Assembly (NCBI GenBank): GCA_951406725.2
Contig: OX597836.1
Location: 35,030,001-35,094,000 of the forward strand
Direction of reading: 5' to 3'
DNA length: 64,000 bases
DNA from: Octopus vulgaris
Taxonomy: Eukaryota
Below the pieces are notes generated by a model. The model made no database searches. It worked only from the letters and a program-made list of their open reading frames with translations, and was not told where the DNA came from. A program made the translations under genes and the position numbers. This document shows positions 268 through 45,391 of the stretch, piece after piece; within the stretch, counting starts at the first letter, position 1, and each line of letters starts with the position of its first letter.

Positions 268-780
268 CAAAAAAGGGTGGAATATAATTAATTTAATAAA
301 ATTAATAAATTTCACCTAGTAGATTTATCGGTATGGAAAAGATCCTATTTGGTAAGGGTTATAATAATTATAATTAAGGGTTAATTGCAACAAGTTGCTC
401 AAAACCATATTCCGAAAATATTAGAAATAGCAGCTAAATTGACCACTATTTTTCCTACTAATAAAAGTCTCCACAAACAAACAGAATTTGTAACCTGTAT
501 ATGGCAAAAAGGGAAGAAAATAACGAAATCCCAGCCTTTTTTGCCATATTACAGGTTACAAATTCTGTTTGTTTGTGGAGACTTTTATTAGTAGGAGAAA
601 TAGTGATCAATTTAGCTGCTATTTCTAATATCTTCGGAACATGGTTTTGAGCAACTTGTTGCAATTAACCCTTAATTATAATTATTATAACCCTTACCAA
701 ATATGGCCTTTTCCATACCGATAAATCTACTAGGTGAAATTTATTAATTTTATTAAATTAATTATATTCCACCCTTTTTT
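268..780. mobile_element. Fold-back (head-to-head) pair of Penelope pLTR/retrozyme-like 3' modules inside a (TA)n tract
   Basis: About 240-bp inverted arms (270-512 / 535-780) with a ~22-nt spacer and (TA)n on both sides. Arms carry the CTGCTATTTC motif and the ...CCATACCGA...GGTGAAATT...CCACCC terminus shared with the ribozyme-bearing elements at 26921 and 44060. Confidence 0.8.
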
Positions 781-839
781 ATATATATATATATATATAT
801 ATATATATATATATATATATATATATATATATATATATA

Positions 840-1878
840 CTTCAAAAATAATGGTGAAAAATTGGATATTAATTTAATAACACCAATTCAACACCAAGCG
901 ATCCAGCGCACAAAAACTAAGATTCAGTAAATATAATACACAAATATAAGGGAGGATCCACTATGTGGACGCTCTTGCGCTAAAAATAGATCCGTAATGG
1001 TCTCACCCATTAAGAATTGTTCCCAAGAAAAATTAGCACAACTATGAACGTAAGCGAGCAGGACAAATGAAAAATAACAAAAATGTAGATTATAATTTTT
1101 CTTGAGAACAATTCTTGATAATTGAGACTATTGCGGATCTATTTTTAGCGCAAGAGCGTCGACATAGTGGATCCTCTCTTATATTTGTATATATATATAT
1201 ATATATATATATATATATATATATATATATATATATATATATATATATATATATATATATATATATATATATATATATATATATATATATATATATATAT
1301 ATATATATATATAGATATATATATATGTATATATATATATAGGTATATATGTATATATATGTATATATATATATATATATATATATATATATATATATAT
1401 ATATATACCTATATATATATATATATATATATATATATATATATATATATATATATATATATATATATATATATATATATATATATATATATATATATAT
1501 ATATATATATATATATATATATATATATATATATATATATATACAAATATAAGAGAGGATCCACTATGTCGACGCTCTTGCGCTAAAAATAGATCCGCAA
1601 TAGTCTCAATTATCAAGAATTGTTCTCAAGAAAAATTATAATCTACATTTTTGTTATTTTTCATTTGTCCTGCTCGCTTACGTTCATAGTTGTGCTAATT
1701 TTTCTTGGGAACAATTCTTAATGGGTGAGACCATTACGGATCTATTTTTAGCGCAAGAGCGTCCACATATATATTTGTGTATTATATTTACTGAATCTCA
1801 GTTTTTGTGCGCTGGATGGTTTGGTGTTGAATTGGTGTTATTAAATTAATATCCAATTTTTCACCCTTATTTTTGAAG
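840..1878. repeat. Nested inverted repeat: two ~340-bp arms around a (TA)n spacer, each arm itself a hairpin
   Basis: 840-1188 is the reverse complement of 1543-1878, with a few substitutions and a short deletion. Within the left arm ~938-1030 pairs with ~1105-1188. Outer termini resemble the 3' end of the 2061-2483 element (ACACCAAGCGA..AGC.CAAAAA). Confidence 0.85.
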
Positions 1879-2156
1879 TATATATATATATATATATGCA
1901 AAAAAGGGTGGATATATATATATATATATGCAAAAAAGGGTGGAATATAATTAATTTAATAAAATTAATAAAATTAATATTATTTAATTTATATACATAT
2001 ATATAGATATATATACATACATATATATATATATATATATATATATATATATATATATATCTCAGTCTCTCTCTCTCTCTCTAACTACAACAGAATGTAA
2101 TTGATCGGACCATATGAGAATCGTCGCTTGTAAGGGTCTGATCAATTATATTGACA

Positions 2157-2233
2157 AATGTTGCTGATGAATCATAGACAATTATGTAAGTATAATCTGC
2201 ATTTTGTTAATGAAGAAACAATTGTACAACATT
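2157..2233 (+). ncRNA. Type I hammerhead ribozyme (minimal stem III, loop AATT)
   Basis: AATGTTG-CTGATGA-[imperfect stem II TCAT.GACAA..ATGTA / TGCAT..TTGTT.ATGA]-GAAA-C-AATT-G-TA-CAACATT. Stem I is 7 bp; cleavage triplet GUA. Confidence 0.85.
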
Positions 2234-41704: not shown

Positions 41705-44398
41705 CGTGCTTATATTGTATAAGTTGGGATTAATAAATGGAAAAATTGATGTAGTTTATATGTGTGTGTGTGGTTTGTATAATCTTGTATATCTAATTAG
41801 AAATATTAAAAGAAATATAAGTGTGTGTATAATGTAAATCGATGGAGATGTGAAAGGCAAGAGAGGGAGAGAAGCTGGTCACCTTCCTTTCATATACTAA
41901 GGTATGAATAGGTAAATAATTAAGGGATGCAGCCTATTTGTAGTACTACAAATTTTCAAGACACACACACATACACATCTTATTAGCTTCTTTCTTTGTT
42001 TCTTTCTTTCTTTTTAAAGTAGATAAAGGTGAGATGGTATAAGTGAAGGATAGGTCGCATTTGGGGGCTGCTATTCACTGCTTAACTCCCACCCCTAAAC
42101 AAACACACACGCCTTTTAGCTTTTGTCTTTCTTTCCTTTTTTTAAAGAAGGTAATGACGTGGCGGGAAAGGTGTAGGATAGGTAGGTAATTTGGGCTGCT
42201 ATTTTCTGCTTATCTCCCACCCACCATCTCAAACACACACACATTTCAATAGCTTTATCATTTCTGTCTTTCTTTCTTTATTTAAATATTTTAAAAAAGG
42301 TAAGTTTCAGCTGGTATAGGTGTGGGGTAGTTAGTTGTTTGTGGCTAGTATTGGCTGCTTAACTCCCAGTCCCCATCACTCTCGCTCTCTCTCTCTCTCT
42401 CTCTCTCTCTCTCTCTCTCTCACTCTCTCTCTCTCTCTCTTTACTTCTTTCTCACACACACACATCCCTATAAGCCCTTACATATACACATGTCTATTAG
42501 GGAAATTTTGTTAATACTGCGTCGTAAGCTTTGAACGCAACAATCCATGCGTGACCTCTTCTGTGAGCGATACGATGGACTTTTACCTTTAAGCATAATA
42601 TATTTAAAGGTATATGCATTATATTTGTTTAAATATAACATATTTTGGGGTGAATATGAAATAAATTCCTTTAAACGAATCGTTTAAAATTGTTCATATA
42701 ATATTTTAATATTGGTATACGGAATAAAAAGTAATAACTTATACGCGTGTGCATACACATATATATGTTTGTGTGTTTGTGTGTTTGTAAGGTAGATGGA
42801 GAATTGATATTGATTTATATACGTTTATATATACATATCTATATATAGTTACATACGCATCTGTAATTATAAGATGTTATACATACATACATACATACAT
42901 ACATACATACATACATACATACATACATACATATATATATATATGTAAAACTGTTTATTTATGTAGATATGTATATATATATATATGTACATACAAGCAT
43001 TTTTATTTTTATATATATGTATACATATGTATAGGTATATATATGTGTGTATATCTATATATATATATGTATACAGATATAAGCATATACATATATACTT
43101 ATATGTATGTATGTATATATATATATATATATATGTATATATATATATATATATATATATATATATATATATATATAAGTATATATATATATATTGGAGA
43201 GTTTACGAAGAAAGCAAAAGACGAAGACAGGTGGTGTACAAAACAAAGTGATGTATTAGTACAACGCTCAGGAATAGAAAAAGTCTTTTACGTTTCTACA
43301 GAAAGGGGCACAGAAAAGACATGGAGAGAAAAAGAATTTGTGTAGTGGCTAACGATCTATCACGGAGGCTATATGTAATTATATATATATATATATATAT
43401 ATATATATATATATATATATATATATATATATATATATATATATATATATATATATATATATATATATATATATATATATATATATATATATATGTATGT
43501 ATATATACACACACGTATGTTTATCTATGTAGATATGTATATATATACGTAGAAATACGTATGTTTATTTATGTATATATGTATACATATATATATGGAC
43601 ATATATATGTGTGTATATCTATGTATATATATATATGTATACAGATATAAGCATATACATCAATCCATATATATATATATATATATATATATATATATAT
43701 ATATATATTTATATACATAATTATGTCCACATATATAAACTTATCTATGTATGTCTATAAATATATATGTATATACATTCATATATATATATATCTGTAT
43801 ACATATATATGTTTTTATATATAACTATATATATATGTATTTATTTCCTTCTTCCCTTCTTTCCTGAGCGTCCAATAATACTTTATTTGCTCCACATCCT
43901 TGCGTTGTTGTTTTTTGTTTTCTTGTTTGGATTAACTATATATATATATATATATATATATATATATATATATATATATATATATATATATATATATATA
44001 TATATATATATATATATATATATATATATATATATATATATATATATATATATATATATTATATATAAGGGCTTAGTAAAATAAATTACTTTGCCACATA
44101 CTGAACTCATTAGAAATAGCAGCTAAAGAAATTTCTTCAGCTATTTCTAATACTTAAAGAAGATCTCTCTCAGATAGTGTTTGCCTAAACAAACTCACAA
44201 AGGTATGGGGGAGAAAACATTAAAAAATCAAGTGCAAAGGTTATTTGAGATCGTACGTTTCTAGATTAGTCAATTCGACATTTCTTGCATATTCGGATTT
44301 GATAGCACTTTTAGTTCGAGCAGAATTCTAGAGGTGATGAGAAGCCGAAAGGGTATGCTCCCGACTTTCAGTGTTCCCAAATCCGATTCAAGGAATTC

Positions 44399-44450
44399 TG
44401 AGCTGACGAAAGAAATGTCGAATTGACAAATCTAGAAACGTACGTTCTCA
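44399..44450 (+). ncRNA. Type I hammerhead ribozyme (loop GTAC), copy 1
   Basis: TGAG-CTGACGA-AAGAAATGTC GAATT GACAAATCTA-GAAA-C-GTAC-G-TT-CTCA. Confidence 0.8.
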
Positions 44451-44954
44451 AATAACCTTTGCACTTGATTTTTTAATGTTTTTTCCCCATACCTTTGTGA
44501 GTTGGTTTAGGCAAACACTATCTGAGAGAGATCTTCTTTAAGTATTAGAAATAGCTGAAGAAATTTCTTTAGCTGCTATTTCTAATGAGTTCAGTATGTG
44601 GCAAAGTAATTTATTTTACTAAGCCCTTATATATAATGTAATATTTTGAATTCGCCTAAAATGGTCCCTTTACATACTGAATACTTGGTGAAATTGATTA
44701 ATAATTAATTAATTTTACCCTCAATTGTTGAAATTATAATTCATCTCTCTCTGCTAAATGCTGCAGTTTTCACCGTTAATACATGGTGTTTGTCAATTTT
44801 AACCCATGCTGGTGGAAAGGGGAGAGCAGAAATTCTTCGCTTGCATATTCGGATTTGATAGCACTTATAGTTCGAGCAGAATTCTAGAGGTGATGAGAAG
44901 CCGAAAGGGTATGCTCCCGACTTTCAGTGTTCCCAAATCCGATTCAAGGAATTC

Positions 44955-45006
44955 TGAGCTGACGAAAGAAATGTCGAATTGACTAATCTAGAAACGTACG
45001 TTCTCA
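44955..45006 (+). ncRNA. Type I hammerhead ribozyme (loop GTAC), copy 2
   Basis: As copy 1, 556 nt downstream. Confidence 0.8.
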
Positions 45007-45391
45007 AATAACCTTTGCACTTGATTTTTTAATGTTTTTTCCCCCATACCTTTGTGAGTTGGTTTAGGCAAACACTATCTGAGAGAGATCTTCTTTAAGT
45101 ATTAGAAATAGCTGAAGAAATTTCTTTAGCTGCTATTTCTAATGAGTTCAGTATGTGGCAAAGTAATTTATTTTACTAAGCCCTTATATATAATGTAATA
45201 TTTTGAATTCGCCTAAAATGGTCCCTTTACATACTGAATACTTGGTGAAATTGATTAATTATTAATTAATTTTACCCTCAATTGTTGAAATTATATATAT
45301 ATATATATATATATATAAATATATATATATATATTTATATATTTATATAGATATATATAGAAAGAAAGTGAGAGAGAGAGAATTAAGTGTG

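Follow-up and report, generated by a model that had tools for sequence, protein, structure and literature searches.

Hammerhead-bearing elements of the window

The window, i.e., the whole 64-kb stretch analyzed, belongs to contig OX597836.1 (positions 35,030,001 to 35,094,000) of the 2.8-Gb genome of Octopus vulgaris. Its repeats of short interspersed element (SINE) type resemble octopus ones. It abounds in (TA)n and related microsatellites and harbors short elements with type I hammerhead ribozyme motifs, described in an initial annotation as non-coding retroelements related to retrozymes and to Penelope-like elements (PLEs). These elements are sorted here into families A to I. By their sequence organization, families A, B, D, E, F, H, and I are retrozymes that lack long terminal repeats (non-LTR retrozymes), composed of hammerhead monomers devoid of an open reading frame (ORF) in head-to-tail partial tandems, and the reverse transcriptase (RT)/GIY-YIG protein of PLEs from the Hydra clade likely serves to copy them in trans. 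Each monomer family possesses two fixed 3' sites, termed S and L, located 86-136 nt apart.

Family F is represented by an insertion (44050..45291, + strand) of 1.8 head-to-tail units of an ORF-less monomer of ~557 nt, with its L end before (TA)34. It includes an inverted arm (44050-44286, - strand), whose S end lies in (TA)n. Type I hammerheads occur in unit 1 (44399..44450, +; predicted cleavage after 44446, at a GUU triplet) and in unit 2 (44955..45006, +; predicted cleavage after 45002), the two being successive units of a single insertion. Its 3' end carries a module shared with other families (45097..45286, +), with one stem-loop before S, a second before L, and a predicted helix spanning S.

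The copy of family A (2082..2487, +) covers 0.85 of a 484-nt monomer, with its L end in (TA)64 and a hammerhead at 2157-2233 (+; predicted cleavage after 2226). A mirror duplicate (2610..3013, -) does not count as an insertion of its own; in its hammerhead (2862-2938, -), stem III is disrupted and the GUA cleavage triplet has become UUA. The two motifs, at first counted as two units, are mirror arms of one (TA)n-centered inverted duplication: the arms are identical at 421 of 423 aligned bases and have their 5' junction and flank in common. Inverted duplications at 740-1980 and 1987-3108, around (TA)n runs at 1180-1551 and 2488-2615, take in flanks and several elements, and reflect either a cruciform-driven duplication or a long-read fold-back artefact. 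Family I is found around (TA)186 in two mirror insertions (840..1888, no strand assigned), both of which combine an L arm with an inverted S arm; the hammerhead of its monomer of about 500 nt sits upstream of these truncated copies. Family H (528-nt monomer) is present as two inverted truncated copies (268..780, no strand assigned), its hammerhead lying outside them.

Family B is represented by 1.1 units of a 593-nt monomer (26920..27589, -), with an L end and a hammerhead at 27210-27294 (-; predicted cleavage after 27216). A B-related copy (16243..16602, -; the 5' boundary given is not mapped) is 82% identical to it over 269 nt; it possesses an S end and a hammerhead at 16441-16527 (-; predicted cleavage after 16447). 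The copy of family D (32742..33147, +) comprises 0.85 of a 480-nt monomer with an S end. Its hammerhead (32937-32990, +) has U in place of C at core position 3, where the family D reference copy instead reads CUGAAGA. Beside this copy lies an AT-rich 700-nt repeat (31928-32607) that is 95% identical to part of another genomic locus (L050); several loci contain a 60-nt piece of it, and in one of these (L155) the piece lies within the long stem II of a D-type hammerhead. Finally, the copy of family E (38687..39238, -) comprises 0.89 of a 470-nt monomer and a short inverted arm, with a hammerhead at 38778-38875 (-; predicted cleavage after 38784). A damaged relative (6592..6820, +; about 85% identity) has no intact CUGANGA core.

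Hammerhead motifs

A descriptor of type I hammerheads (CUGANGA, GAAA, stem III, NUH, and stem I) detects seven motifs in the window, at 2164 (+), 16521 (-), 18968 (+), 27288 (-), 38869 (-), 44403 (+), and 44959 (+). A stricter filter is passed by six of them, the motif at 27288 being rejected for its stem II; 100 local dinucleotide shuffles of the window yield 0.05 motifs on average and at most 2. No Rfam hammerhead family matches the window at or above its gathering threshold, likely because stem II is long and stem III palindromic, and all 150 matches listed among the 267 obtained by E-value are microsatellite artefacts.

The initial annotation had counted nine well-formed hammerheads. Seven of the nine have an intact core and six satisfy the strict filter, those at 2862 and 32937 being damaged copies. 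Among its three relics, the one at 6595 is indeed a damaged relative of that at 38778 (~85%) and the core at 30410 is damaged, but the motif at 26621 is not decayed, its CCGACGA core being the normal state of a family with 94-99% identity. The proposed density of one ribozyme per 5-6 kb holds only with damaged copies counted. Under the strict filter there are 6 per 64 kb in the window versus 13 per 400 kb in a genome sample of 40 evenly spaced stretches (0-2 in shuffles), from which a rough extrapolation leads to ~90,000 such hammerheads per genome (Poisson range 48,000-156,000, from 13 in 400 kb).

The qualification "minimal" applies poorly to these hammerheads: stem II is mostly long (median 45 nt over 42 sequence clusters) and stem III is palindromic, the minimal form being found in family G (see below). 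These 42 clusters derive from a core-based scan of 1.6 Mb of gathered genome DNA, a biased sample. The loops of stem III are self-complementary in 11 of 12 cases in sampled stretches, versus 1.8 expected; a second statistic (41/42 palindromic) was dropped as circular, because the scan itself required pairing. Across copies of five families, the 11-nt core is intact in 129 of 145 passes.

ORF-less monomers in partial tandems

Searches of the genome with each unit returned 272-3076 first-look candidates apiece, which are not copy numbers, and the best 20-30 loci per family were retained. Loci showing one insertion twice, and three near-identical B copies on C12 taken as duplicates, were removed before counting. 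In the longer genomic copies, each unit has its own 3' end directly repeated upstream of it (A, B, D, E, F, H, and I), and the periods close at 484 (A), about 557 (F), 593 (B), 470 (E), and 480 nt (D); the monomers of H and I measure 528 and about 500 nt. Arrays are short, up to 3 units. Two or more units are present in 7 of 25 F insertions, and the F insertion of the window contains two consecutive complete hammerheads, the minimum asked of a non-LTR retrozyme; A, B, D, and E attain 1.4-1.9 units, with two hammerheads in only some of them. Each monomer carries one hammerhead, and those of A, B, D, E, and F have a GC content of 0.32-0.35. No LTR is found in the monomers (primer-binding sites and polypurine tracts were not searched for).

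No PLE ORF is contiguous with a unit in 145 loci of families A, B, D, E, and F, and the longest ATG-initiated ORF on the five circularized monomers (5/5) is of 30-54 residues. The description of the units as ORF-less and non-autonomous thus stands for these monomers, and fails for the family of the motif at 18961 (see below). Most chromosomes carry copies, whose 3' ends are fixed and 5' ends vary, and which diverge by about 1-15%; those of family F are 98-99% identical, indicating a young family. Contigs from four public runs, three presumed to be RNA and one of unspecified kind, cover most of the F monomer, and are uninformative on strand, ends, or circles. The motif is intact in 6 of the 25 loci of family H and in 4 of the 20 of family I, the H hammerhead core being a compensatory U3-A8 variant (as in L333:rc 1434-1490). 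It is possible that repeat catalogues already list these families differently, e.g., as unclassified SINEs or Penelope.

Two 3' sites and inverted arms at (TA)n

As stated in the initial annotation, the units land in (TA)n: of the 198 arm ends that belong to 131 distinct insertions of families A, B, D, E, and F, 177 are succeeded by (TA)4+. In 180 of these 198 cases, the end falls within 16 nt of S or L. An inverted arm is found at the 5' side of 67 of the 131 insertions, and the two arms of a pair nearly always end at different sites. Once the 12 of 67 pairs in which an end maps to neither site are left out, 52 of 55 pairs are mixed (36 S/L and 16 L/S, versus 2 L/L and 1 S/S; Fisher p 8e-11). 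5' junctions are scattered, with variable 5' truncation, and target-site duplications, which are large in non-LTR retrozymes when present, are unreadable, as the insertions sit inside (TA)n.

Two observations concern the origin of the inverted arms. Half of those located beside a sub-unit forward arm (13/26) carry at least 25 nt missing from the forward arm, and the 5' ends of a pair lie within 30 nt of each other in only 11 of 55 cases. Most inverted arms are therefore not fold-back copies. We infer that twin priming, in which two independent cDNAs are made from one template, can yield such arms, whereas fold-back copying cannot. Junctions between arms often overlap by 1-7 nt. The insertions display features of PLE-type insertion: fixed 3' ends with an optional tail, 5' truncation, partial tandems, and an adjacent inverted copy. 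The S and L ends and the inverted-arm rule, which had escaped the initial annotation, tie the units to the PLE machinery.

The shared 3' module

The sharing of a 3' module by several diverged units is confirmed for families F, B, and H. This module of ~190 nt is also found at several hammerhead-less ends in the window, with 18 matches in the window and 12 in the 400-kb sample. Its predicted consensus fold places S and L each directly after a stem-loop, with a helix across S. In an alignment of 13 sequences, 92% of the cells pair, and the covariation score exceeds that of 500/500 shuffles. The module at 9892-10005 is part of a separate small element and not of the neighboring PLE. In addition, five copies of a module-bearing, hammerhead-less inverted insertion (45381-45681, 52837-53316, 54707-55027, 58566-58826, and 63405-63706) lie within local segmental duplications.

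Autonomous Penelope-like elements and families C and G

The window also contains a degenerate, 5'-truncated autonomous PLE of the Hydra clade (8002..9765, -), with an RT thumb, asparagine-rich inserts, a CxCx5C linker, and a GIY-YIG domain. Its family, P1, has intact ORFs of 980-1090 residues (7804 candidates) and sense hammerheads of like build; it forms partial tandems and inverted pseudo-LTRs and ends in (TA)n. Long asparagine-rich inserts flank the RT thumb of the P1 ORFs (window 8917-9777 and loci L031-L050), and have likewise been described for rotifer Penelope elements. A hammerhead antisense to the ORF at 8917-9777 had been considered and is ruled out, intact relatives carrying sense hammerheads. 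A second family, P2 (L316-L323, e.g., G000:C5:4981800-4988200), possesses a 717-residue ORF and is very young: all 150 copies scored, among 18,740 candidates, have the same sequence across the endonuclease query. Its hammerhead core, CCGAAGA, has C at position 4 as the family state.

Family C (18444..19572, +) is the 5'-truncated 3' end of an autonomous Hydra-clade PLE, with a hammerhead at 18964-19040 and an inverted arm (18444-18867) that stops 82 nt short of the forward end. In 7 of 25 loci, an ORF for a GIY-YIG endonuclease sits ~500 nt upstream, so that the motif at 18961, previously classed as non-autonomous, belongs to a truncated autonomous element; for this unit, it is the outcome that the initial annotation itself had named as speaking against its interpretation. 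The ends at 39359-39560, with a short inverted arm, and at 46466-46564 are 3' ends of another autonomous Hydra-like family; by eye, 39461-39560 matches the end of locus L424.

DKT, CxCx5C, CxxC, and CxH are found in P1, P2, and C, and RWK in P1 and P2, the N-terminus of C not having been recovered. The CxCx5C linker and, at the C-terminus, a GIY-YIG-like domain with CxxC and CxH are visible in the ORFs of loci L037, L317, and L325. Pfam returns no match for P1 or P2. Such motifs are the defining ones of the Hydra clade, described as inserting into (TA)n and carrying canonical hammerheads (PMC8557442), and on this basis P1, P2, and C are assigned to it. The inverted pairs of P1 and P2 are mixed in 20 of 22 cases (ten P2 S-ends over-extended by BLAST were re-read as S). 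PLEs of the type found at 8002-9765 are a candidate class of mobilizer.

Family G (26105..26747, +) possesses a minimal, dimer-type hammerhead at about 26621-26655 with the core CCGACGA. Its copies share a CA-rich upstream sequence of up to 2.4 kb (window 25132-26747), microsatellite-like but borne by the element, and no ORF is present within 2.4 kb upstream in 13 long loci. An older G-type 3' end (30278..30485, -) is 77% identical to 26568-26774, with a damaged core.

Template and ribozyme

Few 5' junctions lie at the predicted cleavage site: 4 of 198 are within 10 nt of it, versus about 8 expected, the forward arms being selected for spanning the site. Among the inverted arms, which are not so selected, 29 read through the site, 1 stops there, and 36 end earlier. 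Such read-through implies that the template is a ligated circle or an uncleaved multimer.

The variants shared by the passes of an insertion provide a second view of the template. With TA-junction zones and CpG sites set aside, an inherited variant occurs throughout the passes of its insertion in 152 cases and is split between them in 34; for the young families A and F, the figures are 103 and 4. When direct passes only are counted, 16 variants unique to one insertion are present throughout its passes, and 15 inherited variants are split. In 62 of 71 insertions, an array diverges less within itself than the between-array median. This variant sharing favors the re-reading of one monomer, which may occur via a circle or by template jumps.

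Inherited variants affect 0 of 55 core positions versus 161 of 2511 others (p 0.047), and position N7 varies in two of the five families. These figures speak for constraint on the hammerhead, as does the compensatory core of family H, although the test is marginal. Co-folding yields a double hammerhead as the minimum-energy dimer for four of the seven window motifs. A palindromic stem III has been taken to point to dimeric cleavage of PLE hammerheads (PMC4209133), and cleavage of the Poseidon hammerhead is reported only with protein (PMC11167929).

Proposed mobilization and its alternatives

Taken together, the ORF-less monomers are likely copied in trans by the RT/GIY-YIG protein of a Hydra-clade PLE, probably from a monomer RNA that can be re-read and is likely circular; a probability of about 0.7 is given to this reading. 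A partial tandem would first be transcribed. Two hammerheads would pair via their palindromic stem III and excise a unit-length RNA, to be ligated into a circle as in other retrozymes. The PLE protein, a predicted dimer, would nick both (TA)n strands, by analogy with the biochemistry of Poseidon. The two 3'-OH ends would then start cDNA synthesis at the internal sites S and L, one strand each, which would produce the pattern observed in the insertions. Synthesis crosses the cleavage junction and extends over 0.05-3 units with variable stops, as seen in the copies themselves. The two cDNAs may join head to head by 1-7 nt of microhomology, leaving an inverted arm; alternatively, one cDNA may be completed, leaving a plain partial tandem.

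A bolder version of this scheme, held here as tentative, regards the monomers as minimal circular RNA parasites of Hydra PLEs, present in tens of thousands of copies, in which a dimeric RT would prime both nicked strands on the same circle, one per stem-loop "handle". If true, twin priming on a circle would account together for the PLE tail, the inverted pseudo-LTR, and the spread of animal retrozymes.

Several points weigh against trans-copying of a circular monomer by a Hydra-clade PLE. The loci are the top-scoring ones, so that forward arms are skewed toward long, L-ending, hammerhead-spanning copies. In only 27 of 71 insertions does an array diverge no more within itself than from the closest other insertion, and the test of core constraint is marginal. 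The motifs at 44399, 18961, and 32937 have no double-hammerhead minimum, and the GUU triplet of family F is weak. Eight of nine Xenopus retrozyme dimers showed no cleavage in vitro (bioRxiv 10.64898/2026.07.22.740005), and Poseidon hammerhead mutants insert normally, uncleaved RNA being the main template (PMC11167929). In the module, the number of pairs changed on both sides is not above that of shuffles (64/500), and the 13 sequences are related. None of 214 module matches is contiguous with an ORF piece, and none was found in 40 further Hydra-like loci, in a partner search that covered 10 short extra stretches of the 40 wanted and is far from exhaustive. As no autonomous element with the module has been found, the PLE partner is assigned by its insertion signature only.

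The most probable alternative, with less than even odds, keeps the same elements and the PLE mobilizer, and replaces the circle by an uncleaved linear read-through RNA. Extra units would arise by template jumps, and the hammerhead would be a passenger or a trimmer. Read-through of the cleavage site fits this scheme as well, autonomous PLEs also make partial tandems, and arrays here do not exceed 3 units. However, the 16 insertion-unique variants found in all direct passes need one monomer to be read twice, which a template jump could also achieve. Moreover, the core is intact in most passes, as given above, and across the 42 diverged clusters (themselves retrieved by a core-based scan), and expression in circular form is reported for coral, mussel, and axolotl retrozymes (PMC7229834).

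Mobilization by another class of element, either a Neptune-clade PLE or a microsatellite-targeting long interspersed element (LINE) such as R4/Dong, is considered unlikely. LINE-mobilized elements normally possess one 3' end and a simple tail, which counts against a LINE. The two-site ends, inverted arms, and palindromic hammerheads with a long stem II match P1, P2, and C, and neither of the two Neptune 3' ends inspected had a hammerhead or the module. Conversely, Neptune-type ORFs ending in (TA)n are present in the genome (L329 and L060), which also tells against a Hydra-clade partner, as does the lack of a Hydra element found with the module; a microsatellite bias of Neptune is reported in the literature, and the octopus repeat annotation lists active Dong-R4, RTE, and CR1 LINEs (PMC13282606).

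That all units are 5'-truncated ends of autonomous PLEs is very improbable as a general explanation. It is correct for family C (7/25 loci) and for the end at 39461-39560, given its match to L424, and is possible for family G. In contrast, A, B, D, E, F, H, and I have their own 3' end upstream, closed periods of 470-593 nt, at most 3 units, and no ORF, and for these seven families it is refuted, as judged from the sequences of the loci examined. Last, a DNA-level satellite (unequal crossover or rolling-circle copying) or (TA)n assembly artefacts can be set aside almost entirely: the mirror duplications at 740-1980 and 1987-3108 do include flanks, but the copies are dispersed with fixed 3' and variable 5' ends and about 1-15% divergence, arms hold sequence missing from their partner, and family F is found in independent public runs too.

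Other features of the window

Beyond these elements, a segmental duplication with 90% identity links 40450-42191 and 60033-61719; it contains a C2H2 zinc-finger-like exon (~41270-41575 and 60831-61124), whose motif was recognized by eye. Further duplicated blocks are located at 54759-56541 and 58558-60488. LINE remains identified by Pfam matches lie at 46943-50058 and 11483-13320: one element with apurinic/apyrimidinic (AP)-endonuclease and RT domains in several frames, and a presumably RTE-like one split into two pieces of opposite orientation. A Pif1 helicase fragment, Helitron-like, and two transposase fragments, presumably of Tc1/mariner type, are distributed over 22811-23362, 51446-52024, and 33320-33496. 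Finally, a GCA-rich repeat of 450 nt (21892-22344) lies between inverted 77-nt repeats (21763-21839 and 22420-22496).

Comparison with known systems

The units are genuine and numerous; most are non-autonomous, with truncated autonomous ends among them, and their class is already published. A literature search, with most subscription papers outside its scope, returned none on cephalopod retrozymes or on PLE twin priming, nor any that reports a link between retrozymes and Hydra elements that target (TA)n, tails as long as 86-136 nt, or the rule of one arm each. Hammerheads and ribozymes are absent from the text and one supplement of the octopus repeat annotation (PMC13282606).

With animal non-LTR retrozymes (PMC7229834; bioRxiv 10.64898/2026.07.22.740005), the monomers share one type I hammerhead per head-to-tail monomer, the lack of ORF and LTR, and the co-occurrence of PLEs. 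Their GC content of 32-35% agrees with that of retrozymes, put below 45-50%. The monomers measure 470-593 nt, versus 170-400 nt for retrozyme RNAs (PMC7229834) or 51-972 bp (bioRxiv 10.64898/2026.07.22.740005), and form dispersed insertions of 0.6-3 units, whereas retrozymes form long arrays. Retrozymes are expressed as linear and circular unit-length RNA, which for the present monomers is a prediction. The retrozyme passages of these two papers mention neither (TA)n targeting nor a pair of fixed 3' ends nor inverted arms. Both papers regard PLEs as the likely mobilizers and leave the mechanism open, and non-LTR retrozymes have been derived from PLE pseudo-LTRs (bioRxiv 10.64898/2026.07.22.740005).

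Hydra-clade PLEs, as described in PMC8557442, share with these units insertion into (TA)n, a canonical hammerhead, partial tandems, an inverted 5'-truncated copy, and a tail at one end. They differ by a shorter tail (30-40 nt versus 86-136 nt here) and by the ORF that the monomers lack. Section 11 of that paper does not mention non-autonomous Hydra derivatives; non-autonomous Chlamys elements such as MRC1 are described there, in a clade mostly without canonical hammerheads.

The hammerheads resemble those reported from PLEs (PMC4209133) in their palindromic stem III, in the unpaired base before stem II (several families), in the U3-A8 pair of family H, and in the minimal form of family G. They differ in that most have a long stem II (median 45 nt), and in that G and P2 usually have C at position 4.

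A mechanistic parallel is the Poseidon element PAc of the green anole (PMC11167929), which has two internal RT start sites and an AT-rich target, cuts and extends both strands, and reads through its hammerhead. The Poseidon tail is the interval between the two start sites, and its protein is predicted to be a dimer. PAc is, however, autonomous, with start sites close together inside the ORF, and displays no strand difference in vitro, whereas here the two arms nearly always use different sites.

In the PLE literature, the origin of tandem and inverted insertions is unsolved. Gene-less retrozymes and intact PLEs of one genome share the two-site, one-arm-each signature, which is direct genomic support for mobilization by PLEs and yields a precise prediction, namely twin priming at S and L. 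In abundance, ~90,000 hammerheads would place the octopus genome near that of the axolotl, for which 120,000 are reported (PMC7229834).

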